This document shows positions 1-55,457 of a DNA stretch of 64,000 nt, piece after piece. Origin of the DNA: Escherichia coli (GTDB lineage Bacteria > Pseudomonadota > Gammaproteobacteria > Enterobacterales > Enterobacteriaceae); the NCBI RefSeq assembly GCF_001677475.2, contig NZ_CP015229.1; one strand, 5' to 3'. Both the position numbers and the translations under genes were made by a program. The notes beneath the pieces are model-generated. The model saw only the letters and a program-made list of their open reading frames with translations. It did no database searches and was not told the origin of the DNA. The first letter of the stretch is position 1. Each line of letters begins with the position of its first letter.

Positions 1-766
1 CAATGGTGCGCCCGCTGACTTTGGTCATTGCCGTACCAAATGGCTGGAAATCATTATTTTTGGTTTGGTCGACCAGAATGTTGCGATCGGCAAGGAACAG
101 AATGCGTTTTTTATTTTTTGATTTCCACAGGCGCCAGATGATCTGGAATGCGGTATAGGTTTTCCCTGTTCCGGTCGCCATTACCAGCAGAACACGGTTT
201 TGCCCGTTGGAGACGGCTTCTATGGTTTTGTTGATTGCCTGAAGCTGGTAATAACGTGGCGATTTACCGCTGCCATCGTCGTAATAGTCCTGAGTAATCA
301 CCGGAAGCTGAGCTTGTGTGTATCCTTTCCAGAGGCAGAATTTTTGCCAGAGTTCAGCGGGGGAGGGGAAGTCATCCAGCGTTATTTGCTTTTCAAGGCA
401 TTCACCTTCGGCTGCGGTAGCATCGCGGAAGATAAAGCCATCACCGTTGGTGGCAAAAACAAAAGGAACGTCCAGCAGGCGCGCGTATTCAATGCCCTGT
501 TGCATCCCTTTGCCAATTTCATGTTTGTTGGCTTTTGCTTCAATCACGGCTAAGGGAATGCCTGGTTTGTGATACAGCACGATGTCAGCAGATTTTACCG
601 TTCTGCGTGCCGCAACTTTACCACGTACGATGACTTTACCGTCCCGGAGTTTGACCTCCTGTCTGATTTGCGTTGTGTTGTCCCAGCCTGCATTGAGAAT
701 GGCTGGCATAACGCATTTGGTAATGATGTCTGCTTCCGTCAGGTTACTTAGGTTCAGTTCCGCCAT
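1..766 (-). CDS. hsdR: Type I restriction enzyme R subunit-like protein, N-terminal ~255 aa; gene continues beyond window start
   Basis: Own reverse-strand translation from ATG (complement 764-766) gives [18 protein letters not shown]... open to position 1; nuclease-like D..IEAK motif and helicase motif [15 protein letters not shown]; N-terminus differs from EcoKI HsdR as I recall it. Confidence 0.6.
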
Positions 767-906
767 GGGGTGTTCTCATCTAAATGCGATGCGCAAATTC
801 TACACAGAAAAATAGATGAATTCATCTGTTCAAAGAGTATTATCAGCGTTAAGTCACTGTTTTAAAGGTATTCTTGAGTTTCATCAATAGTAGGATAAGG
901 ATTCAT

Positions 907-1875
907 ATGGAGAATGTTCGGTTCTTGCAAGGAGTGAAACAATATTTTTGTACTAAGGCATTAGATGTCATTCTGCTAATTTATCTACTCCTTGGTTTTA
1001 TACTTCTCCCTTATAAATATCTGTGGAAAGATATTATTTTATCTCTGTGCTTTGTTGGTATTCTTCTTTATGCATTAGTGGAAGAAAATCGCATTACAGA
1101 ATATATGGGGTATTTTGTCAAGTTCAGTAATAAAAACAGTTTGAATAGTTGTGCTGCCTGGTGTTCACTTATTGCATGGTTTATATTTTTGTTTTTTGTG
1201 CTTTCAATTAATATTTTTCCAGTCAGTGTCTCTGTATACGTTTTTAGTGCTTTTTCAGTATTTGTTTTTCTGGGAGGTGTTTTTATTATATTAGAGTTGG
1301 AATTTAAAAATAATAAAAAATTAATGATTATTAGGTCTATGACTTTAGCTGTCATACCAATTATATATTTATTCTCAAGTAGTTTTTCTTCCAGTTTATT
1401 TTTAAGTTTGAGTAATCTAAATATCACACTATCACCATGGGTTGAGTATTTCTGGAAAGGGATGGCTTTTTTGTTTCTTTTCTTCATGTTAATGCAACTT
1501 ATTATCTATTTTACTTTTTTAACTCTGTGGGCTAAATTAAGTGTGTACAGGTTGTTTATACTTGCCGGAGCATTTATAGCATCTACTATTTTAGTGGTTT
1601 TTGCTTCAAAAAACGTAGAGAGTATTTCGTACTACGTTTTAAAAAGTACTATAGATTTTGAATGGCGCAGTCAGGTTAAATGTGGACAGTTGAATATTTC
1701 ACATCCGGATGAAAGGTATTTCGGGTTTAATACCGATAAATATACTGTATTTTATTCCAATAGAGAGGGTAAATGGGGGTTCAATGAGTTGAAATGTAAG
1801 AAAGGTTCTGACAGGAGAGATGCATATTCCATTGAGAATGTCTCAGAATATAACGTGCCAGGATGGCTGAAATAA
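907..1875 (+). CDS. Hypothetical polytopic membrane protein (about 7 predicted TM helices plus ~85 aa hydrophilic C-terminal domain); AT-rich orphan gene
   Basis: ORF track 874..1875 (TTG start); ATG at 907 with AAGGA-like RBS preferred; very low GC relative to flanks; occupies the slot where K-12 has mrr. Confidence 0.5.
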   Translation: MENVRFLQGVKQYFCTKALDVILLIYLLLGFILLPYKYLWKDIILSLCFVGILLYALVEENRITEYMGYFVKFSNKNSLNSCAAWCSLIAWFIFLFFVLSINIFPVSVSVYVFSAFSVFVFLGGVFIILELEFKNNKKLMIIRSMTLAVIPIIYLFSSSFSSSLFLSLSNLNITLSPWVEYFWKGMAFLFLFFMLMQLIIYFTFLTLWAKLSVYRLFILAGAFIASTILVVFASKNVESISYYVLKSTIDFEWRSQVKCGQLNISHPDERYFGFNTDKYTVFYSNREGKWGFNELKCKKGSDRRDAYSIENVSEYNVPGWLK

Positions 1876-1914
1876 GTTATCTTTATAATTAAATCGTAAA
1901 GGTTCTGGACATAA

Positions 1915-2106
1915 ATGAGCATGGTTAAACATAAACGGGGCACACTCTACACACTTGATGTGCAGCAAGAAGCTGAACTCAAGGCTTTGGTTAATAAATC
2001 CGACGATTATATTGATTACAGCGATATTCCTGCGTCTGGTAGCGATGCATGGGCTGACGCCAAACGCAGCAATTTTTTGCCAAATCCAGGTATTCACGCG
2101 CAATAA
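1915..2106 (+). CDS. Hypothetical small protein (63 aa)
   Basis: ORF track; ATG start; followed by hairpin at ~2115-2146 shared with convergent yjiA; no family recognised. Confidence 0.3.
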   Translation: MSMVKHKRGTLYTLDVQQEAELKALVNKSDDYIDYSDIPASGSDAWADAKRSNFLPNPGIHAQ

Positions 2107-2185
2107 AACTTAGCGGAGGGGAGCTCGTCGTTCTGCTTCCCCCTCACTGCTAAATGGGGCATTGAACTGCTTTACACTCAACCTT

Positions 2186-3148
2186 TCACGCAGACTTCCT
2201 CAACCCCGCAAACGCCGCCCGAATCTCATCCTCCGGCAGCTGAATCCCGATAAACACCATCGTGCTATGCGGTTTTTCATCGCCCCACGGGCGGTCCCAG
2301 TCGGCGCTGTAGAGGCGCTGGACGCCCTGGAACAGCAGGCGGTTAGGTTCGCCGTCAATCCATAGCATCCCTTTGTAACGCAGCAGTTTATCCGCCGACT
2401 CCAGCAGCAGGTTTTCCATCACCCGGGAAACTTCGCTGATATCTACCGGGTAATCCAGTTCCACCACAATCGACGAAATATCGTTTTGTTTATCCGCGAT
2501 AAAGTGAAAACGTGGCTTGGTGCTGACGACGTTCTCTTCCAGCATAAAACCGTTGGTGTTGAACAGCAGGCCCAGGTCGATGTCGCCGTGGGTGACGGTG
2601 TAGACCGGTGCGCGGGCGTTGATGCGCGCCAGGCGTTCACGCAGTTTCTCTGCTTCGCCTGCGACGTCGGTTTTAGTCAGCAGAATACGGTCGGCGTAGC
2701 CAACCTGGGACTGGGCGATGGTGAACTGGTTCATCTGCTCATCGGCATGTACCGCATCCACCAGCGCAATCACGCCGTCCAGCAGGTAGCGCTGGCATAA
2801 AATCTCATGGGAGAAAAAGGTCTGAATAATCGGGCCGGGATCGGCCATGCCGGTGCATTCAATGACCAGACGGTCGAACTGAATATTGCCCTTGTCGAGA
2901 TTATCCAGCAGGTCGAGTAGCGCGTCTTCCAGCTCGTTGGAGCGCGAACAGCAGATGCAGCCGTTGGTCAGCGTTTTGATCTGCGTGGCGCGGTCGCCAA
3001 TCAGTTGATCATCAACGGAGACTTCGCCGAATTCGTTTTCAATCACGGCAATCTTGTAGCCGTGTTGTTCGTTAAGAATATGGCGCAACAGGGTGGTTTT
3101 GCCCGCGCCTAAAAAACCGGTGAGTAGGGTAACTGCAATCGGGTTCAT
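2186..3148 (-). CDS. yjiA: GTP-binding protein YjiA (CobW/P-loop GTPase family)
   Basis: ORF track 2186..3232; start set at internal Met giving MNPIAVTLLTGFLGAGKTTLL (Walker A), 318 aa as recalled for YjiA. Confidence 0.9.
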   Translation of the reverse strand: MNPIAVTLLTGFLGAGKTTLLRHILNEQHGYKIAVIENEFGEVSVDDQLIGDRATQIKTLTNGCICCSRSNELEDALLDLLDNLDKGNIQFDRLVIECTGMADPGPIIQTFFSHEILCQRYLLDGVIALVDAVHADEQMNQFTIAQSQVGYADRILLTKTDVAGEAEKLRERLARINARAPVYTVTHGDIDLGLLFNTNGFMLEENVVSTKPRFHFIADKQNDISSIVVELDYPVDISEVSRVMENLLLESADKLLRYKGMLWIDGEPNRLLFQGVQRLYSADWDRPWGDEKPHSTMVFIGIQLPEDEIRAAFAGLRKSA

Positions 3149-3158
3149 GCTCTCTCCA

Positions 3159-3362
3159 TTAACAACAGCGCATACCGCCTTTACCATCGCCGCCGTAGCG
3201 CGCGTTCTGGCGTTCGCGGAAGAATTCTTCATAGCTCATGTACGGCTTGTCGGGATGGTTGGTCTTCATATGCTCGACGTAGTTGTCGTAGTCTGGAATG
3301 CCAATCAACATCTTCGCCGCCTGGCCGAGATATTTTTTTGCCTGTCCTAAGTTACCAAACAT
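3159..3362 (-). CDS. yjiX: Small DUF466 protein YjiX (67 aa)
   Basis: ORF track 3159..3488; internal Met [17 protein letters not shown] matches YjiX as recalled; upstream part of ORF overlaps REP repeats. Confidence 0.8.
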
Positions 3363-6035: not shown

Positions 6036-6548
6036 TTAAATCGCAGCTTCCATTTCCAGCATCACCGGATGGAAACGGCGTTTAAAGTAGATAAGTCCGT
6101 GACCTTCTGCACTGAGGATGATGTTTTTAATCTCCACCAGATACACCAGATGTGTGCCAATTGCCTGCACATCGCGGATCTCACCTTCAAGACTGGCCAG
6201 CGAACCTTTCAGCACCGGCTGCGCCAGCGGACCTTTTTGCCAGCATGAGAGGCTAAAACGCTCTTCCATCGCCATGCCTGTCATGCCCGCGAAGTGGCGT
6301 GCCATCAGTTCCTGCTCATGGTTGAGGACGTTGACGCACAACTTGCCGTTGCCCTGAAAAACCGGGTTCATCGCACTGTTGGCGTTAATGCACACCATCA
6401 GCGACGGTGGTGTATCCGTGACCGAGCAGACAGCCGTTGCCGTAATCCCGCATTGTCCGGCGTCGCCCTCGGTGGTGATAATATTTACCGCTGCCGACAG
6501 GCTGGCCATCGCGTCACGAAAGCGCAGGCGTTGTTCATCTAATTGCAT
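6036..6548 (-). CDS. hpaC: 4-hydroxyphenylacetate 3-monooxygenase reductase component HpaC (flavin reductase)
   Basis: ORF track 6036..6566; MQLDEQRLRFRDAMASLSAAVNIITT... matches HpaC as recalled; immediately downstream of hpaB. Confidence 0.85.
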   Translation of the reverse strand: MQLDEQRLRFRDAMASLSAAVNIITTEGDAGQCGITATAVCSVTDTPPSLMVCINANSAMNPVFQGNGKLCVNVLNHEQELMARHFAGMTGMAMEERFSLSCWQKGPLAQPVLKGSLASLEGEIRDVQAIGTHLVYLVEIKNIILSAEGHGLIYFKRRFHPVMLEMEAAI

Positions 6549-6565
6549 CTTAACCTCCTGCTGCA

Positions 6566-8128
6566 TTATTTCAGCAGCTTATCCAGCATGTTGATATCGT
6601 CGTTGTTGTGCAGGTGCGGCACAGTCCAGCCGTTCTGGTCGTATTCCGACAGGCAGCGATCAACCATCGCCATCATCTTGTCCATATTGCCGGAGCTTTG
6701 TGCCTGGCGCAGACATTGCAGGCGAATCTCATCCTGGCTACCGGAGTAGTTGATTTCATACAGTTCGTGACGACCACCAAATTCGCTGCCAATGGCATCC
6801 CACATCAGTTTGAGGATCTTGATGCGCTGGACGTGATCCATACCATTCGAACCGCGCACATACTTCGCCAGATACTGGTCGATCTGCGGATTGTTCAGGT
6901 CACGGGCACTGGAAGGGAGATAGATCAGGCCACTGGTAACGTTGCGTTCGATAATGTTTTTGATCTTCGCGTAGGCCATTGGTGCCAGTACGCGATAGGT
7001 TTGCAGTGCGGCATGATCCGGTAAATAAGCCCCGTTGACCCACGGCGTCGCTTCAGAACACATCGAGTCACTCAATGCCCAGAAGGTGTTGCGCCACGCC
7101 ACCACTTCACCGAGATCGGCCTGCACACCACGGAACTCCAGGGTGCCGGTACATTCGAGTGATTTTTTCAGCAGTGCCGTAATGAAGTCTAATTTCACTG
7201 CCAGGCGCACACAGGCTTGCAGCGGATACATACGGGCAAAACCACCTTCCATTGTCCAGCGACGGCAGCGATCGAAATCGCGGTAGATCAGTACGTTTTC
7301 CCATGGGATCAGCACGTTATCCATCACCAGAATCGCATCGTTCTCATCAAAGCGGCTGGAGAGCGGGTAGTCGTACGGCGAGCCGGTAGCACCCGCGACC
7401 ATCTCATAAGAGGCGCGGGAGATTAATTTCACGCCATCGGCATCCATTGGCGCAACGAACATCAGTGCGAAGTCCGGGTTTTCGCCCATCACTTGTGCCG
7501 AGCCGAAGCCAATCATGTTGTAGTGAGTCAGCGCCGAGTTGGTGGCAACCACTTTCGCACCGCTGACGATAATCCCGGCGTCAGTCTCTTTTTCCAGCTT
7601 GATGTAAACGTCTTTCACTTTATCGGTCGGCAAATGACGATCGATCGGTGGGTTAACAATCGCGTGGTTAAAGTAGAGGCCAGTTTCCTGAATACGGGTG
7701 TACCAGTTACGGGCGTTCTGCTCGAACTGACCGTAAAAGCCCGGATTCGCGCCCAGTGCGCAACCGAAAGCAGCTTTGTAGTCTGGGGTACGGCCCATCC
7801 AGCCATAGCTCAGGCGTGACCACTCAGCGATGGCGTCGCGTTGCTGGCGCAGGTCGTCGGCACTTTTCGCCACGCGGAAGAATTTATGGGTATAGCCGCC
7901 GCTGCCGGTGTCGGTGTTCCAACACAGAGAGTCCTGCATCTCCGGTTTGTGTAGCGCGTCGTACAGTTGGGCAACAGACGCTGCCGCATTACGAAATGCC
8001 GGATGAGTGGTGACGTCTTTCACTCGCTCGCCGTAGATATAGATCTCGCGACCATCCTGCAGGCTTTTCAGATACTCTTCCCCGGTGAACGGACGTTGGG
8101 TACTGGCGCGGAAATCTTCTGGTTTCAT
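6566..8128 (-). CDS. hpaB: 4-hydroxyphenylacetate 3-monooxygenase oxygenase component HpaB
   Basis: ORF track, 520 aa, MKPEDFRASTQRPFTGEEYLKSLQDGREIYIYGERV. Confidence 0.9.
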   Translation of the reverse strand: MKPEDFRASTQRPFTGEEYLKSLQDGREIYIYGERVKDVTTHPAFRNAAASVAQLYDALHKPEMQDSLCWNTDTGSGGYTHKFFRVAKSADDLRQQRDAIAEWSRLSYGWMGRTPDYKAAFGCALGANPGFYGQFEQNARNWYTRIQETGLYFNHAIVNPPIDRHLPTDKVKDVYIKLEKETDAGIIVSGAKVVATNSALTHYNMIGFGSAQVMGENPDFALMFVAPMDADGVKLISRASYEMVAGATGSPYDYPLSSRFDENDAILVMDNVLIPWENVLIYRDFDRCRRWTMEGGFARMYPLQACVRLAVKLDFITALLKKSLECTGTLEFRGVQADLGEVVAWRNTFWALSDSMCSEATPWVNGAYLPDHAALQTYRVLAPMAYAKIKNIIERNVTSGLIYLPSSARDLNNPQIDQYLAKYVRGSNGMDHVQRIKILKLMWDAIGSEFGGRHELYEINYSGSQDEIRLQCLRQAQSSGNMDKMMAMVDRCLSEYDQNGWTVPHLHNNDDINMLDKLLK

Positions 8129-8378
8129 GTCGACCTCTACAGTATTAATCGGAATACGATTGTTAATTTTGTGTGTTGTTTTTGTTATTCAATTGAAGCT
8201 TGCAGAGGCGATTACGGGAAGACACTTTTGGGACAATGGCTGGTACTTTTCAGGTCGGGTACGGTTTTGTGATCGAGGTCGCTTTTAGCAATTTTTGACG
8301 TTACTAAATCCCCTTGCTCCAGGCGGAGAAAGGGGAATAGCAGGTGGTGCCTGGTTTCCCGTTAAGGCTAAGGGATTT

Positions 8379-9269
8379 TCACGTCACAGGTACTTTTTTG
8401 GCACGATAAGCACTGGGCGAGCAACCGACTAAGCGATTAAAAAAGCGGGCAAAATAAGCCGGATCTTTAAAACCGAGTTGCCAGGCAATATTGTTCACGG
8501 CGTTATCAGAAAACAGCAGCAGCCGCTTGGCTTCTCGCAGCTGCCTGTCGAAAATCAACCGTTTTGGCGGACGGTTGGCAAAGCGGCGGCAGATGTCGGT
8601 GAGGCGTGATTCGGTGATATGCAGTTCGTTAGCGTAATCCGGTACTGTCCAGTGCTGATGAAAATGGCTTTCAATCAGCATATTAAAACGCTGGAACAGT
8701 TTTAATTCTCCGCGCATTCCGCTGGCGGCATGGTCGTCGAGTTTTGCGTTACGCAGCAGTAGGGTGAACACTGCCTGTGCCAGTAACGTCAGGGTGTGTT
8801 CCCGTCCAGGCAGTTGTTCCACCGATTCCCGCTCTATCAGTTGCCAATAGTGTTCCAGCGCCGCCAGTTCGTCGGGTTTATCTGCCAGTGACAGGCAAAT
8901 CCCCGGGAGGCCGAAGGTTTCCCGAGTGCCCGGATAAAGAACTTCCAGCAGGGGCCAGATCAGATCTTCCCGTACCGTCAATACATGACCGTCGGCGTCA
9001 GACTCCGTAATAAACGCATGAGGTACTGACGGCGGCGTCAGGACAAACAGGGGCGCTTCCACCGAGTAACGATGATCGTCAAGCTGTAGCTCAATCTGTC
9101 CGCTATTGAGGAAATGCATCTGAAAGTACTGTTCGTGGCGATGTGGCAGCATATGGCGGCCAAAAAATGCCGCCATGCGGGCGAACGACTGATAATGCAC
9201 ATCGTCCGTGCCCAGGCTTTCATCGTACTCTTTGCTGATATCAATATTGGCAATCTGAGGGTCACACAT
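8379..9269 (-). CDS. hpaA: AraC/XylS-family transcriptional activator HpaA
   Basis: ORF track 296 aa; C-terminal AraC-type HTH; position between hpaX and hpaBC. Confidence 0.8.
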   Translation of the reverse strand: MCDPQIANIDISKEYDESLGTDDVHYQSFARMAAFFGRHMLPHRHEQYFQMHFLNSGQIELQLDDHRYSVEAPLFVLTPPSVPHAFITESDADGHVLTVREDLIWPLLEVLYPGTRETFGLPGICLSLADKPDELAALEHYWQLIERESVEQLPGREHTLTLLAQAVFTLLLRNAKLDDHAASGMRGELKLFQRFNMLIESHFHQHWTVPDYANELHITESRLTDICRRFANRPPKRLIFDRQLREAKRLLLFSDNAVNNIAWQLGFKDPAYFARFFNRLVGCSPSAYRAKKVPVT

Positions 9270-9278
9270 CGTCGTTCC

Positions 9279-10655
9279 TTACGGGGTCGCTCGCGGACGG
9301 GAGGACTGCATTGGAATCGCCCAGATAATCCCCGCACCAATCACCAGCAGCGCGGCAACAAACCACAATCCACTGTTAAAGCTGCCGGTCAGATCTTTCA
9401 ACCAGCCGATCATAAACGGACTTAACGCTGAACCAATGTTGCCAGTGGCGTTGATCACCGCAATACCGATCGCTCGTGCCCGCAGGCTGATGGATTGATC
9501 CGGTGTTGTCCAGAAAATCGCCATTGCGCTGAATGATCCGGTCGAAGCCATAATGATCCCCAGCATCTGGATCATGTTGTGATCAGTTGCCGAAGCCAGT
9601 AACCAACCAGCGGCAGCGAACAAATAAGGAAGGGCGGTGTGATGCCTTCGTTCCTGGCGGCGATCTGAGTGACGGCTCCAGTAGATCATCCCGAGAATGG
9701 TACAAATCTGCGGTACGGCGGCCAGCAGGCCGATGGTGATATTACTGCTGCCCTGATTAAAACTTTGCAGGATCTGCGGTGTCCAGATGCTGATCGCACT
9801 AAGTGTGTTGGTCAGGCAGAAATACGCCAGGGTATACATCATCACCACCGGAGTGAAGATCTCCCGCCACATACTGCGTTGTTGCATGGCGTGGTGGCTG
9901 ATGGCTCCCTCTGGCTGAACCAGCTTCAGACGATCGTTATCCATCATCTCTTGCAGGCATTTTTTGTCTTCTTTCGTCAGCCACTTAGCTTTGTCCGGTG
10001 AGTCATCAAGCCAGAACCACACCATGACGCCGAGTAATACCGACGGGAAGCCTTCCAGCAAAAACAGCCACTGCCAGCCTTTTAATGCCATTACACCATC
10101 CAGCGACAAAATGTAGCCGGAAACGATCGAGCCCAACGCTGTCGTTACCGGCATTGCTACCATAAACAAGGCGTTGGCACGGGCGCGGAAGTAGGCCGGA
10201 AACCAGAAGGTTAAATAGAGCAGAATGCCAGGCAGAAAGCCGGCTTCGGTAATGCCAACCAGTATACGCAGTACGTATAAGCTGGTGGGGCCAGTGGCAA
10301 ACATGGTAGCAGTAGAGGCGATGCCCCAAAGCACCATGATGGTGGCGATCCAGCGCCGCGCACCGACAATACTCAGCATAATGTTGCTGGGAATGCCGAA
10401 GATGACATAAGCGGCATAGAACAGGGTGGTAGCTAGGCCAAACATGGTGGCGCTCAGACCGAGATCGCGTCCCATCGTTAGTCCGGCAAAGCCGATGTTG
10501 ATGCGATCAAGGAACGAGAAGATAAACAGCACGAACAGAAAGACGATCAGGCGGCGAAATAGCTTCTTAATAACCGCCTGTTGTCCGGCAGTCAGCGCTT
10601 TATGCTGATTCGCCGGATCGATACTCTCCGGTATGGCAGGTGAGGTGTCGCTCAT
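9279..10655 (-). CDS. hpaX: 4-hydroxyphenylacetate MFS transporter HpaX
   Basis: ORF track 9279..10715; start set at MSDTSPAIPES; 12-TM MFS-like composition. Confidence 0.8.
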   Translation of the reverse strand: MSDTSPAIPESIDPANQHKALTAGQQAVIKKLFRRLIVFLFVLFIFSFLDRINIGFAGLTMGRDLGLSATMFGLATTLFYAAYVIFGIPSNIMLSIVGARRWIATIMVLWGIASTATMFATGPTSLYVLRILVGITEAGFLPGILLYLTFWFPAYFRARANALFMVAMPVTTALGSIVSGYILSLDGVMALKGWQWLFLLEGFPSVLLGVMVWFWLDDSPDKAKWLTKEDKKCLQEMMDNDRLKLVQPEGAISHHAMQQRSMWREIFTPVVMMYTLAYFCLTNTLSAISIWTPQILQSFNQGSSNITIGLLAAVPQICTILGMIYWSRHSDRRQERRHHTALPYLFAAAGWLLASATDHNMIQMLGIIMASTGSFSAMAIFWTTPDQSISLRARAIGIAVINATGNIGSALSPFMIGWLKDLTGSFNSGLWFVAALLVIGAGIIWAIPMQSSRPRATP

Positions 10656-10699
10656 TTTTCTTCCTCTAATGGGATTTTTGTAGGGTACGACAAGGTTTA

Positions 10700-10829
<130 letters not shown>

Positions 10830-11618
10830 TTAATACACGCCGGGCTTCACGGCGGTGGCCTGCGCACCAAACCGTGCTGCCAGCGCTTCGGCGGCGCGGG
10901 CGAGCAGGGTGGTGTCAACGCCGACGGCGACAAACAGCGCGCCCAGTTCCAGATAGCGTTTTGCCAGTTGCTCATTGGCGATCAGGATCCCCGGTGCTTT
11001 GCCCGCTTCGCGGATCTGCACGATCGCCTGCTCAATAGCGGCCTGTACTTCCGGGTGCTGCGGATTACCGGCATAACCCATATCGGCGCTCAGATCCGCC
11101 GGGCCGATAAACACGCCGTCTACTCCTTCCACGTCCAGAATCTGCGGTAAGTTCTTCATTGCCTCACGCGTTTCGATCTGCACCAGCACGCACATTTGAT
11201 CGTTGGCTTTTTGTAGGTAATCAGGAATACGATTCCAGCGCGAGGCGCGGGCCAGCGCACTGCCCACACCGCGAATACCGGCGGGGGGATAACGGGTGGC
11301 GCGTACCGCTTCACGGGCTTCGTCGGCGTTTTGTACCATCGGCACCAGTAAGGTTTGTGTGCCGACGTCCAGCAGTTGTTTGATTTGCACCGGATCGTTC
11401 CACGACGGACGCACTACCGGCTGGCTGGGGTAGGGCGCAATCGCCTGTAGCTGGGTGAGCACGGTTTGCACGTTATTCGGCGCGTGCTCACCGTCGATCA
11501 ACAACCAGTCGAATCCTGCTCCGGCCAGTAACTCTGCGCTGTAGCTGCTACTCAGCCCCAGCCATAATCCGATCTGCGGGCGGCCTGCTTTCAGCGCCGC
11601 TTTAAAACTGTTTTCCAT
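10830..11618 (-). CDS. hpaI: 2,4-dihydroxyhept-2-ene-1,7-dioate aldolase HpaI
   Basis: ORF track 10830..11759; internal Met [19 protein letters not shown] gives 262 aa class II aldolase-like protein. Confidence 0.85.
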
Positions 11619-11628
11619 CGTTCTCTCC

Positions 11629-12432
11629 TTAAACAAAGCGGCAGCTAATGGAACCCATGTTGCCGTAATCGACGTGGAAGGTGTCCCCCTTACGCGCCGG
11701 AACCGGGCGGGTGAACGAACCGCCGAGAATGATTTGCCCGGCTTCCAGTTGCACGTCATACGGTGCGAGTTTGTTCGCCAGCCAGGCCACGCCGTTTGCC
11801 GGATGATTCAGCACACCAGCGGCGACGCCGGTTTCTTCAATCACGCCATTGCGATACATCAGGGCGGAGATCCAACGTAGATCCAACTCATCGGGCTTAA
11901 TGGGACGACCTCCGAGAATCACCCCGGCATTGGCGGCGTTATCGGAAATGGTGTCGAATACTTTGCGCGGGCGCTGGGTTTCCGGATCGATGTTGTGGCA
12001 GCGAGCGTCGATCAGCTCCAGCGCCGGGATCACGTAGTCCGTGGCGTTGTAAACGTCGAACAGCGTGCAGTTTGGCCCACGCAGCGGTTTTGCCAGCACA
12101 AAAGCCAGCTCCACTTCAATGCGCGGCACGATGAAGCGATCGGTCGGGATATCGCTGCCATCGTGGAAGAACATGTCATCCAGCAGGGCACCGTAATCCG
12201 GTTCGCTGATTTGTGAGCTGGCCTGCATCGCTTTCGAGGTCAGGCCGATTTTGTGGCCTTTCAGCGTGCGGCCTTCGGCAATTTTCAGGCGTACCCATTC
12301 GCGCTGTACGGCGTAGGCGTCTTCGATGGTGATCTCCGGGTAATCCAGCGAGATCGCGCGGATCTGTTCGCGCTGTTTTTCTGCCTGATCCAGACGCTGG
12401 GCGATCAGTGTGTAGGTGTGTTTGTCGAACAT
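11629..12432 (-). CDS. hpaH: 2-oxo-hept-3-ene-1,7-dioate hydratase HpaH
   Basis: ORF track 11629..12498; start set at [19 protein letters not shown], 267 aa. Confidence 0.85.
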
Positions 12433-12500
12433 AGCGATATCCTGTGGCATTGCCGGATGGCGGCTGCGCCTTATCATCCGGCCTGGAAGCTGGTGCAAAT

Positions 12501-12881
12501 TTATTTAAACAACGCGTGTACGTTGTTCTGTTTGAAATTCAACGTCGGGTGCAGCTCTGCAATCTCAAATGAAAGCGCCAGGTAACGGCTCTCCATCAGT
12601 GAGGCGAAGTGCGTTTTAATCAGATCAAACAGCATTTCGCCCACTTCCTGACGGCTTTCCAGACTGCGTCCGCTGCCGATTTTTAGTGTCATATGCACAA
12701 AGGCGTAATCGTGCTTGCCATCAGCCATTTGCCAGGTATCGATCCAGTGCGCCCGGCTACGTATTCCCCCAAGCGGAAAAATCCCCGTCGCCGCCAGTGC
12801 AGTGTTAACACTGGCAAACAGCTCAGGTAAGCGGGCTTCTTGACGAATATTTTCAGTACATTCCACGATAAAGTGCGGCAT
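12501..12881 (-). CDS. hpaF: 5-carboxymethyl-2-hydroxymuconate isomerase HpaF
   Basis: ORF track, 126 aa, [22 protein letters not shown]. Confidence 0.85.
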
Positions 12882-12890
12882 GGTGGTTCC

Positions 12891-13742
12891 TTACGCGGGC
12901 AGCGGGAAAACAGCGTTAACCTGACCGGTGCCAGAGCTTGGGAACAGCTCGGTGATAAACTCCACCTTGCCGTCGTATTTATCCCAGCCGAGCATCCCCA
13001 GCAGCATCACCGTGTCGTGCATATTGCCTTCGCCGTAGCAGTAGTCGGCGTACTCCGGCAGCATATTGCAGAACTCTTTGAACTGGCCTTCGCGCCACAG
13101 CTTCACCACGCGCTCGTCCATCTGGCGGTCGAACTCGCGGGTGTAGCTGTTCATCCCTTCTTCTGCACGCTGATCGTCAATAAAGCGGTGCGATAACGAA
13201 CCGCTGGCAAGGACCGCCACGGTACCGTCGTACTGTTCGATCGCTTTCAGAATCGCTTCGCCCAGCTTGCGGCTGTCGGCAAAATCGTGAACCGTGCAGA
13301 AAGCCGAAATGGAAACCACTTTGAAGTGCTTGTCTTCATTCATGTAGCGCATTGGCACCAGCGTGCCGTATTCCAGTTTCAGGCTGGGAATGTTGTGCGC
13401 TTTCGCCCGCACGCCGAGCTTTAAGGCTTCATCGGCAATTAGCTGCCCCAACTCCGGGTTGCCCTCGTAGTTGTAGGTCATGTCACGAATAAAATGCGGC
13501 AGCTCGTTACTGGTGTAGACGCCTTCAAAATGGTCTGCACAGTTGATGTGATAAGCACTGTTGACCAGCCAGTGGGTATCGAAAACGATAATGGTATCGA
13601 CGCCCATTTCCCGGCAACGCTTGCTGATCTCTTTATGCCCGTCGATCGCGCCCTGGCGGCAACCGTGGTTTTTCCCTGGCAGTTCAGAGAGATACATCGA
13701 CGGTACGTGCGTGATCTTGGCGGCTAACGCTAACTTACCCAT
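12891..13742 (-). CDS. hpaD: 3,4-dihydroxyphenylacetate 2,3-dioxygenase HpaD
   Basis: ORF track, 283 aa extradiol dioxygenase-like; position in hpa operon. Confidence 0.85.
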   Translation of the reverse strand: MGKLALAAKITHVPSMYLSELPGKNHGCRQGAIDGHKEISKRCREMGVDTIIVFDTHWLVNSAYHINCADHFEGVYTSNELPHFIRDMTYNYEGNPELGQLIADEALKLGVRAKAHNIPSLKLEYGTLVPMRYMNEDKHFKVVSISAFCTVHDFADSRKLGEAILKAIEQYDGTVAVLASGSLSHRFIDDQRAEEGMNSYTREFDRQMDERVVKLWREGQFKEFCNMLPEYADYCYGEGNMHDTVMLLGMLGWDKYDGKVEFITELFPSSGTGQVNAVFPLPA

Positions 13743-13743
13743 A

Positions 13744-15210
13744 TCAGACTCCCCATTTCGGAATTGGATGGTCGCCCATGGAAATGCAGACGTTCTTCAT
13801 TTCCGCGAACACTTCGAAGCTGTACTCACCGCCTTCACGCCCGGTGCCGGAGGCTTTTACGCCGCCAAACGGCTGGCGCAGGTCGCGCACGTTCTGGGTG
13901 TTGACGAACACCATGCCTGCTTCAATGCCACGCGCCAGGCGTAACACTTTGCTGACATCCTGTGTCCAGATGTACGACGCGAGGCCGTACTCCACGTCGT
14001 TTGCCAGGCGCAGACCTGCGGCTTCGTCTTTAAACGGCAGCAGGCAGGCGACCGGCCCGAAAATCTCTTCCTGGGCGACGCGCATACGGTTATCAACGTC
14101 TGCCAGCACCGTTGGGCGCAGGAAGTTACCGCCTTTCAGGTGCGCAGGCAGGTCGGACGGTTTATCCGGACCGCCCGCCAGCAGGGTTGCGCCTTCTTCA
14201 ATGCCGAGACGGATATAGCCGGAGACTTTTTCCCAGTGTTGCTGGCTGATAAGCGCCCCAACCTGGGTATTCGGATCGTTCGGATCGCCCACGCGCAGAC
14301 GGTTGGCGCGTTCGGCAAAGCGTTTAACGAATTCTGGATAGATGCTCTGTTGAATAAAGATGCGCGAACCGGCGGTGCAGCGTTCGCCGTTGATTGAGAA
14401 GATGGTGAACAGGGCGGCGTCCAGCGCGCGCTCAATATCGGCATCTTCAAAAATCAGCACCGGCGATTTTCCGCCCAGTTCCATGGAGTATTTTTTCAGC
14501 CCGGCGTTTTTCATGATGTTGCGCCCGGTGGCGGTACCGCCGGTGAACGACACGGCACGCACGTCATGATGACGGACCAGCGCATCGCCTGCGGTTGCGC
14601 CGTAGCCCTGTACCACGTTCAGCACGCCCGCCGGAATACCGGCTTCCAGCGCCAGCTCACCCAGGCGGTCAGCGGTCAGCGGGGAGAGTTCTGACATTTT
14701 CAGTACCGCGGTATTGCCCAGCGCCAGACACGGCGCGACTTTCCAGGTGGCGGTCATAAACGGCACGTTCCACGGCGACACCAGTGCACAAACGCCTACC
14801 GGCTGCACCAGCGTGTAGTTGAGCATCTTGTCGTCGACCGGATAAGTCTTGCCGTTCATCTGCTGGCAGACTTCCGCGAAAAATTCAAAGTTGTGGGAAG
14901 CGCGTGGGATCAACACATTTTTGGTCTGATGGATTGGCAGGCCCGTGTCAGCGGTTTCCATCGCGGCGATCTCAGGCACGTTCTGGTCGATCAGATCGCC
15001 CAGACGGCGCATCAGGCGCGCACGCTCTTTCATCGGCAGATTGGCCCATTTCGGGAACGCCTCTTTCGCTGCCGCTACCGCCTGATTGATCTCCGCTTCA
15101 CCGCCGGAGGCCACATCCGCCAGCACCTCACCGGTTGCTGGATTGGTGGTCTGGAAATAGTCGTTACCTGCAACATTTTTGCCGTTGATCCAATGATTTA
15201 CTTTTTTCAT
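13744..15210 (-). CDS. hpaE: 5-carboxymethyl-2-hydroxymuconate semialdehyde dehydrogenase HpaE
   Basis: ORF track, 488 aa aldehyde dehydrogenase family. Confidence 0.85.
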   Translation of the reverse strand: MKKVNHWINGKNVAGNDYFQTTNPATGEVLADVASGGEAEINQAVAAAKEAFPKWANLPMKERARLMRRLGDLIDQNVPEIAAMETADTGLPIHQTKNVLIPRASHNFEFFAEVCQQMNGKTYPVDDKMLNYTLVQPVGVCALVSPWNVPFMTATWKVAPCLALGNTAVLKMSELSPLTADRLGELALEAGIPAGVLNVVQGYGATAGDALVRHHDVRAVSFTGGTATGRNIMKNAGLKKYSMELGGKSPVLIFEDADIERALDAALFTIFSINGERCTAGSRIFIQQSIYPEFVKRFAERANRLRVGDPNDPNTQVGALISQQHWEKVSGYIRLGIEEGATLLAGGPDKPSDLPAHLKGGNFLRPTVLADVDNRMRVAQEEIFGPVACLLPFKDEAAGLRLANDVEYGLASYIWTQDVSKVLRLARGIEAGMVFVNTQNVRDLRQPFGGVKASGTGREGGEYSFEVFAEMKNVCISMGDHPIPKWGV

Positions 15211-16496
15211 TTCGCTGTATCCTCACTCACAATTCGGTTCACCAGGTGGCCCACGCCTTCTACTTCCACCACTACTTCATCGCCAGGCACCACGTCAGAT
15301 AAGCCTTTTGGTGTGCCGGTGGCGATCATGTCGCCCGGATTCAGGGTCATAAATTCGCTTAAGTAGGCGATCAGGAAGGGCACGCTGAAGATCAGATCGG
15401 CGGTGGTGCCTTGCTGGCGTAACTCGCCGTTGACGAAGGTGCGAAGGGTCAGATTATGCGGGTCCGGGATCGCCTCTTTCGGCACGATGGTTGAAAGCAT
15501 CGGCGTCAGTCCGTCGCGGCTTTTTACCCGCAGGTTAGGGCGGTAGTAGTTTTCCAGATAGTCGCGAATGGCGTAGTCGTTACACACGGTGTAGCCCGCG
15601 ACATAATCCATGGCATCGGCTTCACTGACGTTACGCGCCTGCTTGCCAATAACTACCACCAGCTCCGCTTCGTAGTGCATGTATTCAATCTTGTTCGGGC
15701 GCACGGAGGTCTGGTTATCGCCAGTGAGGGTATTCGACGCTTTCAGGAACACCAGCGGCTCTTCCGGTGGCTTAAATTCCAGTTCGCTGGCGTGGTCGGC
15801 GTAGTTCAGGCCGAGGGCAAACAGCGTACCGTGCGGGTGTGGCAGCGTTGGGAAGCTCTTGCGCGTGGTCACTTCACGTTCGTCCACTACCGGATTTTCC
15901 AGCGGCGGGAAACCTTCTGCGAGAACACGAACGCGATCGCCTGGCTGTATTTCCACGCGCGCCTGTGGCGTGCCGAGCAGAATGGCATCGCCTGGATTCA
16001 GCGTGGCAAATTCGCTCAGGGCGCTCAGCAGCTGTGCGGCGTTACGTTGTAAATCGGCGGTGTTCCAGTGATCGGCAGGACGCCCGTTGATCTCGGTATA
16101 GATGGTCAGATTATCGACATTGCTGAGAGCCACGGTTTCGCCAATGGGGCAGAATCCATCACGACATTTTGCTTTGATTGCCGGGCGGTAAAAGCTCTCT
16201 TCCGGCAGGCTGACGTCGTTAGCCAGCGCATATCCGGCGATGTACTCTGCCGCATCTTCTTCACGTACTTTCGTCGCCGTTTTCCCCACAATCAGCGCAA
16301 CAGTCGCACCGCTCAGTACCTTTTCACCCTGTGGAAAGGGAATCGGTTCACCGCAACCAATCACCGTATTGCGCGGTTTAATAAACCAGACCGCAGTTTT
16401 AGGCGGGGCTTTGTAGGGGGATTTCTGGAACGCTTCCTGCCATGCATCAAGTTGGCTGCGATGGTTCAACGCTACGGCGAAGATAGTGCCTTTCAT
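15207..16496 (-). CDS. hpaG: Bifunctional 4-hydroxyphenylacetate degradation isomerase/decarboxylase HpaG
   Basis: ORF track 15207..16502 (GTG); ATG two codons in gives MKGTIFAVALNHRSQLDAW, 429 aa, duplicated FAH-like halves. Confidence 0.85.
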   Translation of the reverse strand: MKGTIFAVALNHRSQLDAWQEAFQKSPYKAPPKTAVWFIKPRNTVIGCGEPIPFPQGEKVLSGATVALIVGKTATKVREEDAAEYIAGYALANDVSLPEESFYRPAIKAKCRDGFCPIGETVALSNVDNLTIYTEINGRPADHWNTADLQRNAAQLLSALSEFATLNPGDAILLGTPQARVEIQPGDRVRVLAEGFPPLENPVVDEREVTTRKSFPTLPHPHGTLFALGLNYADHASELEFKPPEEPLVFLKASNTLTGDNQTSVRPNKIEYMHYEAELVVVIGKQARNVSEADAMDYVAGYTVCNDYAIRDYLENYYRPNLRVKSRDGLTPMLSTIVPKEAIPDPHNLTLRTFVNGELRQQGTTADLIFSVPFLIAYLSEFMTLNPGDMIATGTPKGLSDVVPGDEVVVEVEGVGHLVNRIVSEDTAK

Positions 16497-16521
16497 TACC
16501 ACTCCTCGGATTCGATCATCT

Positions 16522-31764: not shown

Positions 31765-31851
31765 TGGTGCGAGGGGGGGGACTTGAACCCCCACGTCCGT
31801 AAGGACACTAACACCTGAAGCTAGCGCGTCTACCAATTCCGCCACCTTCGC
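31765..31851 (-). tRNA. leuV: tRNA-Leu (anticodon CAG)
   Basis: Reverse complement reads GCGAAGGTGGCGGAATTGGTAGACGCGCTAGCTTCAGGTGTTAGTGTCCTTACGGACGTGGGGGTTCAAGTCCCCCCCCTCGCACCA; encoded CCA. Confidence 0.95.
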
Positions 31852-31885
31852 ACAGTCATCTTACTTTTTTTGATATCGCCTCGTT

Positions 31886-31972
31886 TGGTGCGAGGGGGGG
31901 GACTTGAACCCCCACGTCCGTAAGAACACTAACACCTGAAGCTAGCGCGTCTACCAATTCCGCCACCTTCGC
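31886..31972 (-). tRNA. leuP: tRNA-Leu (anticodon CAG), one-base variant in variable arm
   Basis: Same 87-nt tRNA with aagaacac instead of aaggacac on plus strand. Confidence 0.95.
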
Positions 31973-32000
31973 CCAGTGCGAGCAATATCAACGTGGTTTT

Positions 32001-32087
32001 TGGTGCGAGGGGGGGGACTTGAACCCCCACGTCCGTAAGGACACTAACACCTGAAGCTAGCGCGTCTACCAATTCCGCCACCTTCGC
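32001..32087 (-). tRNA. leuQ: tRNA-Leu (anticodon CAG)
   Basis: Third tandem copy identical to the first. Confidence 0.95.
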
Positions 32088-42952: not shown

Positions 42953-43229
42953 TTCTGCCATTCCGGGACGTTACACTGTTCAGGCACCTTATAAAACGGG
43001 TGCCGGGCGTGGAAACCCGGAATTCACCAAAGCGCACAACCGCGCTCTTGCGGTTTTTTTGTGTCATGAGCAGCATTACGCCCAAATTATGGTGGGGCGT
43101 GCAGGGCCAACTTCGGTTGGGCCGGGTTCTTTGGTGACCGGTATTTCCACCCCTGTACGTCTCACCACCAATAAGGTCGTGGAAAGCCTTGGTGGTGAGT
43201 TATTAAAAATCACCAAAGAGGCTGCCATC

Positions 43230-51294: not shown

Positions 51295-51594
51295 AAAAAT
51301 TCCTTAATACTGATAACTTGGCGCACTATACACACGTTCCTGAAGAAAGCTATAGTTTTTTGATGGGGTTGAAGATGGCTGGATGTCTAAAATAAACATT
51401 GCTTCATATGTTCAACTATGCGTTAATGATTGCGTCGGTTTGAAGAACAGACGATATACGAAGTAGTTTACTAAAGCAGTTCTCATTTCAGGTGTTATTC
51501 ACTTATTCCTTCTTTGAGTCTCTCCAATTAAGTACGAAGTCGTTTCTGTTATACAAGCCATTTATGCCGAAAGGCTCAAGTTAAGGAATGTAGA

Positions 51595-51810
51595 ATGTCA
51601 AATAAAATGACTGGTTTAGTAAAATGGTTTAACGCTGATAAAGGTTTTGGCTTTATTTCTCCTGTTGATGGTAGTAAAGATGTGTTTGTGCATTTTTCTG
51701 CGATTCAGAATGATAATTTTCGAACCTTATTTGAAGGTCAAAAGGTTACCTTCTCTGTAGAGAGTGGTGCTAAAGGTCCTGCAGCAGCAAATGTCATAAT
51801 TACTGATTAA
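51595..51810 (+). CDS. cspB: Cold-shock protein, CspB-like
   Basis: ORF track 71 aa; [38 protein letters not shown]; divergent from cspF as in Qin. Confidence 0.85.
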
Positions 51811-52093
51811 AATTAATAGTTTGTCTGTATACGATAACGAAGAAGGCTGATGCCTGAGTGGAGATACAGACAGAGTGGTGAATATTGGATCTCTTTAATA
51901 AATAGTAAGGAGATCCAATACATGAAACAATGGCCAGCATATTTGGCAATAACTTAATCAGGAAAAGTATGCTAACCATTGTGGTGAAGTGCAGGTTTGC
52001 TGCATGAATAGTTTTACAGCAGAAGCTAACTGCTAGCATAGCAAAACAAAGTGCGTAAGTGGATGACTCCCACAAAAAGCACCACAATATTAA

Positions 52094-54683: not shown

Positions 54684-55045
54684 ATTAATATTAAATCGGA
54701 TTATTTTTAGCGCTGAATGTGAAATTTAAATAAAAAGGACTCTTCCATGAGTCAAAATCCTTGAAATCTTAAGGGTAAGATAAAAGGTCATTAGACAGAA
54801 TGACACGTTTTATTAATAAATAAAGCTATTGTTTCATTCGTGTGTTTTTCTTTACAAAAGTAATCCTTGCTATGGTTGGTTAATCATGCGTTAATGGTGT
54901 TCTGGTTTGTTACAAAATTATCTGAAGCAGTCATTGTTATAATTTTATTATTTGTACCTCTTGAGATTTCCTTGTTGGTTTTTCTCTCTGATATTTTTTT
55001 CGGACCATTCTGCCCAAGGGCTAACTTCTTCAAAAGGTAATAATG

Positions 55046-55258
55046 ATGTCTAACAAAATGACTGGTTTAGTGAAATGGTTTAACCCTGAAAAAGGTTTTG
55101 GTTTCATCACGCCGAAAGATGGTAGCAAAGATGTGTTTGTCCATTTCTCAGCTATTCAGAGCAACGATTTCAAAACGTTAACTGAGAATCAGGAAGTCGA
55201 ATTTGGTATTGAGAACGGACCTAAAGGCCCCGCGGCTGTTCATGTTGTGGCACTTTGA
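55046..55258 (+). CDS. cspI: Cold-shock protein, CspI-like
   Basis: ORF track 55043..55258; [45 protein letters not shown]. Confidence 0.85.
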
Positions 55259-55457
55259 GGTAGAAAATATTACAAACCATATTCACTTTAGATGCCCGTG
55301 TTGCCATGGTTCTCAGTATAGAACATCATCTTTTGATGTTTCTGACAGGAATCCTTTCGGGGCAAAATGTATCTTTTGTAAATCAATGATGATTACATTT
55401 GATAATATTTCACAATACTTAAATGTTAGCCGTCTGTCGTTAGATTTAAGAAAGTGA
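55242..55457 (+). CDS. Hypothetical small zinc-ribbon protein overlapping cspI 3' end
   Basis: ORF track 55203..55457; internal Met gives [26 protein letters not shown]...CIFCKS. Confidence 0.3.

Follow-up and report, generated by a model that had tools for sequence, protein, structure and literature searches.

Type IB systems have been known at the hsd locus of Escherichia coli since EcoAI; REBASE catalogues them, and PGAP assigns their names automatically. The Immigration Control Region (ICR), the interval from yjiA to yjiN, was the earliest defence island to be reported from E. coli, and type IB is one of the three type I families resident in it, being found in 11% of enterobacterial ICRs (PMC12707154). 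HsdR identity between type I families ranges from 17-26% to about 28%; within type IB it exceeds 90%, the known exception being EcoEI with 77% (PMC2481252). Subunits of different families have shown no mutual complementation in published genetics (PMC2481252, PMC3874165); complementation of EcoAI subunits and cross-reacting antibodies serve as laboratory criteria for type IB (PMC2481252). The HsdR proteins of O157:H7 and CFT073 are 99% identical to a verified type IB enzyme, which is itself 99% identical to EcoAI HsdR (PMC2481252), and EcoAI-type HsdRs have been described as having a QxxxY motif of the RecB family and a compact N-terminus (PMC2475608). An N-terminal fragment of HsdR from Vibrio vulnificus YJ016 has been solved (3H1T) and was assigned to subtype IB by its authors from its similarity to EcoAI; they name E26, D77, E92 and K94 as catalytic, the last three being consistent with EcoAI mutagenesis (PMC2777439).

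Here we analyse a stretch of 64,000 nucleotides of E. coli DNA (contig NZ_CP015229.1; hereafter the window), which begins within such a locus. The minus strand of window positions 1-766 is almost certainly the start of hsdR, whose product is the restriction and motor subunit of a type I system of the EcoAI (type IB) family; the gene lies in the ICR beside yjiA. Because it is a textbook type IB hsdR, the object as such is already known.

Identity and family of the hsdR fragment

The gene starts with an ATG at 766..764 and continues as an uninterrupted frame of 255 codons until it leaves the window at its start, so that about 31% of the gene lies inside (Table 1). Owing to this truncation the fragment is missing from the mechanical list of open reading frames; the 255-aa fragment and the coordinates given in a preliminary description of the window proved to be exact. 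In relatives PGAP places the start of hsdR at the very same base (in the locus designated L001 the coding sequence ends at locus position 9766, which corresponds to window position 766). An intact RefSeq HsdR of 810 aa, WP_000819015.1, matches the fragment at 255/255 amino acids and bears the PGAP name "EcoAI/FtnUII family type I restriction enzyme subunit R".

Profile searches led to the same family. The NCBIfam model NF046051 (restrict_EcoAI) matched the fragment at 6.1e-108, with profile positions 1-242 of 768 aligned to fragment residues 9-254. The cutoff of this equivalog, 550 bits, is set for the whole protein and is out of reach for a fragment that makes up one third of it; the full-length relative with 255/255 identical residues scored 1193.1 bits in a match that spans residues 9-804. 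The PADLOC model for type I restriction enzymes (REase_I, PDLC03049) matched the fragment at 4.1e-155, and Pfam matches were obtained to ResIII (1.8e-25, beginning at fragment residue 169), HSDR_N (3.2e-13) and HSDR_N_2. When the fragment was used to search for homologous proteins, the clusters obtained were all short or partial and bore generic names. The match to NF046051, the identical full-length relative and the identity to the O157:H7 HsdR together identify the fragment as type IB.

The O157:H7 protein is identical to the fragment in amino acid sequence over all 255 residues, and the near-identical E. coli alleles of the EcoAI class comprise EcoAO83I, EcoO157ORF5947P and EcoCFTORF5424P. 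EcoAI HsdR itself (E. coli 15T-, the type IB prototype) has the family model NF046051 in common with the fragment; the link to it runs via the name of this model and the published percentages. With the EcoAI class the fragment shares a compact N-terminus, in which the nuclease motifs occupy residues 11-94, and the location in the ICR; the length of 810 aa is shared by the relatives. Compared with alleles of this class, only eight substitutions are detectable in the visible part. The same count (about 1% of nucleotides) is obtained against each of two alleles, from E. coli 19SZHZ869Rt and O157:H7 TR01, and the visible 255 codons contain neither a stop nor a nonsynonymous change. Since all eight differences are synonymous, the comparison points to purifying selection on this part of hsdR.

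Table 1. Features of the hsdR region, in window coordinates (residue numbers refer to HsdR).
Feature	Position	Strand	Basis
hsdR 5' third (codons 1-255 of ~810), type IB / EcoAI family	1..766	-	translation, protein identity, family profiles
Helicase motif I / Walker A ATGTGKT, residues 197-203	158..178	-	MATGTGKT identical in EcoKI HsdR and 3H1T
SF2 helicase Q motif PRYYQ, residues 170-174	245..259	-	aligned to 3H1T SPRYYQ and EcoKI HsdR RYYQ
N-terminal nuclease domain core	485..736	-	motif positions and alignment to 3H1T
RecB-type Q90xxxY94	485-499	-	
K78 of PD-(D/E)xK motif	533-535	-	
E76 of PD-(D/E)xK motif (E76-A-K78)	539-541	-	
D61 of PD-(D/E)xK motif	584-586	-	
Accessory glutamate E11	734-736	-	
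Divergent intergenic region between hsdR and membrane-protein gene, 140 bp	767..906		sequence

The fragment carries the complete set of residues of a PD-(D/E)xK nuclease of the HsdR type, namely D61, E76 and K78 together with E11 and Q90xxxY94. All nuclease motifs fall between E11 and Y94, so that the N-terminus is compact and has no long extension, as in EcoAI-type enzymes. The motor is represented in the window by the Q motif and motif I; motifs Ia to VI fall beyond the window start, as would the C-terminal EcoEI_R_C domain, and motifs Ia to VI are present in the full-length relative that shares all 255 visible residues. The layout proposed in the preliminary description, a PD-(D/E)xK nuclease followed by helicase motif I, is thereby borne out, each motif having been located and aligned to 3H1T. 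Residues D61, E76 and K78 sit where the mutagenesis-verified triad of EcoAI aligns, and EcoAI's own numbering, which from the alignment we take to be the same, is presumably D61/E76/K78 as well.

Among solved structures 3H1T is the only one matched at E<=1e-5, with 6.2e-51 for the fragment and 2.4e-158 for the full-length relative. All of its catalytic and helicase-motif residues align with the fragment, and in a HMMER alignment E11, D61, E76 and K78 pair with chain positions 26, 77, 92 and 94, i.e. with E26, D77, E92 and K94. Compared to the E. coli alleles it is a more distant relative from another genus, with small indels in the alignment, and its activity is putative. Another relative is a type IB HsdR of Salmonella enterica (locus L005), of the family of StySKI and EcoEI, with 81% identity over the full length. 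Its divergence of about 19% is comparable to that of the EcoEI exception (77%) within type IB, and the protein carries the C-terminal EcoEI_R_C domain (PF08463). The gene order R-M-S, the neighbouring yjiA and an orphan membrane protein in the intervening slot are all as in E. coli.

Locus, partner genes and specificity

All six sampled E. coli relatives have the order hsdS-hsdM-hsdR-[variable slot]-yjiA-yjiX-btsT, as does one Salmonella. In the window hsdR lies 1.4 kb from yjiA-yjiX-btsT, and the part downstream of the slot consists of yjiA (2186-3232, minus strand), yjiX, btsT and the hpa cluster; the yjiA side of the ICR is thus visible and places the gene in this region. At the same site K-12 has symE-hsdS-hsdM-hsdR(EcoKI)-mrr-yjiA and the relatives have symE-hsdS-hsdM-hsdR(IB)-slot-yjiA. 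The hsdR segment occurs in 17.9% of the complete E. coli genomes (970 out of 5426), with a nucleotide identity of 95-99% in 968 of them. The best identity among these 5426 genomes was 99.0% over hsdR and 98.5% over 9.8 kb of core genes, so that the source appears to be a lineage at the level of E. coli outside this collection, possibly Shigella or a phylogroup that is seldom sampled. A 50-mer containing three window-specific SNPs (window 176-225) had no exact match in species-representative genomes and JGI metagenomes.

The divergent intergenic region (Table 1) presumably holds the hsdR promoter. A sigma-70-like match, TTTAAA-16-GATAAT, is found there on the minus strand (866..839). A promoter and terminator scan of positions 600-2300 returned four promoter sites, where 5.4 are expected by chance, and zero terminators; because this yield is below chance expectation, the match is not evidence of function.

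In relatives hsdM and hsdS follow hsdR in the order of transcription, which puts them outside the window, on its left side. Both genes are present in all six sampled E. coli relatives and in Salmonella, and R, M and S are intact in five of the six. The partner genes of the fragment would accordingly be hsdM and hsdS of the IB family, with M and S subunits predicted to be non-interchangeable with those serving other R families. In the set of E. coli relatives compared, identity amounts to 99.6-100% for HsdR and 99.2-100% for HsdM, but to only 55-77% for HsdS. Since HsdS varies to this extent while HsdR and HsdM are near-identical, the recognition sequence cannot be read from HsdR; judged from these sequences, the R subunit tells the family of its M and S partners, not the DNA sequence recognised. 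The preliminary description had deduced a different specificity system from the unfamiliar R subunit. This holds for the family of the M/S partners, which does differ from that of EcoKI, and does not extend to the recognition sequence.

By analogy with EcoAI, two HsdR subunits would dock on an M2S1 methyltransferase made from hsdM and hsdS. HsdS would read a bipartite target, in type IB with 9 bp between the methylated adenines. If the target were unmethylated, the SF2 motor of HsdR would pull in DNA at the expense of ATP, and the N-terminal PD-(D/E)xK/RecB-like nuclease (E11, D61, E76, K78 and QxxxY) would cut at a distant site where translocation stalls. The M2S1 core with two HsdR subunits, the ATP-driven translocation, the distant cutting and the 9-bp interval of type IB are all described in reviews (PMC3874165, PMC12707154). 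ClpXP is needed for restriction alleviation and for safe establishment in a new host in type IA and type IB alike (PMC3874165, PMC12707154). For practical purposes, incoming DNA, whether transformed or conjugated, should be expected to meet a type I barrier from which EcoKI modification would offer no escape, and the target sequence has to be sought in hsdS or a methylome, hsdR being uninformative on this point. Beyond correct annotation the importance of the finding is small.

Alternative readings of the fragment and of the system

That the gene might be an EcoKI-like (type IA) hsdR whose N-terminus was simply misjudged in the preliminary description is a reading with negligible probability. 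The two genes do occupy the same chromosomal slot beside yjiA/mrr, and the proteins share a PD-(D/E)xK nuclease followed by an SF2 motor with conserved Q motif and Walker A. The fragment also gives a weak BLASTP alignment (3e-18) with EcoKI HsdR from MG1655. However, this alignment spans 227 columns, 29% of them gaps, at an identity of 28%, and it starts from EcoKI residue 297, which pairs with fragment residue 60 (the nuclease aspartate of EcoKI HsdR is residue 298). An identity of 28% falls inside the published range between families and so supports a separate family. EcoKI HsdR carries about 240 additional N-terminal residues that have no counterpart in the fragment, which explains why the N-terminus was not recognised, and it is 1170 aa long versus 810 aa for the EcoAI-type relative. 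The family models separate the two proteins in both directions: EcoKI HsdR scores 1739.5 on the type IA equivalog NF008521 (PRK11448; cutoff 729) and 274.4 on the EcoAI model NF046051 (cutoff 550), and the full-length EcoAI-type relative scores 215.9 and 1193.1, respectively. The fragment itself reached 92.7 on NF008521. A type IA identity is refuted by BLASTP and family-model scores alike. Only slightly better off, and still very improbable, is the idea of a non-restriction SF2 helicase-nuclease (RadD, UvrB, Cas3 or Hef), a type III Res subunit or a type ISP enzyme. It could draw on weak matches in the Walker A region (ResIII Pfam, a dnd restriction enzyme, UvrB, Cas3g and RadD; 1e-7 to 5e-4). 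These matches cover only residues ~170-245 and stay far under their cutoffs, whereas the EcoAI model spans residues 9-254 at 6e-108, and in relatives hsdM and hsdS adjoin the gene; the NF046051 and PADLOC scores together with this synteny refute all three variants. The preliminary description had named high identity to EcoKI and best matches to non-restriction helicases as observations that would speak against it. Neither was found, the top matches being restriction R subunits, and its two main points, an N-terminus unlike that of EcoKI HsdR and membership in a different restriction-modification family, stand, the family being type IB (EcoAI).

A more serious alternative, though still an unlikely one, accepts a genuine type IB hsdR and holds that the system is inactive in this strain, through a disruption of hsdR outside the window, a frameshifted hsdM or a broken hsdS, so that the visible part would be a relic. 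Such losses have precedents. In L001, the top relative over window positions 1-2200 (97.9%), the annotation shows a frameshift in hsdM and a split hsdS, which suggests that the hsd locus can decay, and in another relative (L004) an IS1 has removed hsdRMS entirely; moreover, the left flank in the source strain was not recovered. Against a relic stand the intact R, M and S in five of the six sampled relatives and the visible reading frame, in which there is no stop and every one of the eight substitutions is synonymous. By analogy with these relatives, hsdM, hsdS and the part of hsdR outside the window are probably intact in this strain, and the restriction system is probably active.

The variable slot and other parts of the window

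The slot between hsdR and yjiA differs in content between strains, with mrr in K-12 and a DUF262 protein in O157:H7 TR01. In the window it holds an ORF of 322 aa (907-1875, plus strand, divergent from hsdR) and an ORF of 63 aa (1915-2106, plus strand). The 322-aa gene has a GC content of 27-33%, compared with ~50% in the flanks, and occurs in 409 of the 5426 complete E. coli genomes. Its product had no match in Pfam, NCBIfam or PADLOC, and relatives are rare (28 clusters among 5.8 billion proteins; 41 representatives among 1.84 billion). An AlphaFold2 (AF2) model of confident quality (pLDDT 85.8) predicts about seven transmembrane helices and, at the C-terminus, a beta domain of six strands in which two cysteines are invariant; fold searches gave no meaningful match. 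A Salmonella homologue with 41% identity is likewise situated between a type IB hsdR (81% identical to that of E. coli) and yjiA. In Pectobacterium a homologue (30% identity) adjoins the integrase gene of a P4-like satellite located at lptG; this element carries, a few kb away, genes of the OLD family, of TIR-domain proteins and of toxin-antitoxin systems. A role in defence or immunity is suggested for the 322-aa protein only because of its genomic neighbours, and it is doubtful that the gene constitutes a new single-gene phage-defence or immunity module in the slot held by Mrr in K-12.

The 63-aa ORF, between the membrane-protein gene and yjiA, is annotated by PGAP as "antitoxin" in relatives (WP_000063145.1). 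It had no Pfam match even at E<=10 and none in NCBIfam or PADLOC, no toxin partner is visible, and the Salmonella locus is without it. The ORF may be the remnant of the antitoxin of a toxin-antitoxin system, at a guess BrnA-like; brnAT is among the toxin-antitoxin systems of the ICR (PMC12707154).

Further into the window, the hpa cluster for 4-hydroxyphenylacetate catabolism (6036-16500, minus strand) lies between btsT and tsr; it is absent from K-12 MG1655 and present at that site in many E. coli strains. Three tandem tRNA genes form a leuVPQ-like cluster at 31768-32087 (minus strand). Beyond it (~33000-64000) phage-type RNA elements were found, namely isrK (42984-43060), a C4 antisense RNA (43085-43172) and a pair of thermoregulator leaders of the cspA type (51434-51873 and 54889-55304). 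Since the tRNA cluster is followed by such elements, the right half of the window may contain a lambdoid prophage or what is left of one. From 49 to 57 kb the density of ORFs longer than 180 aa is reduced.
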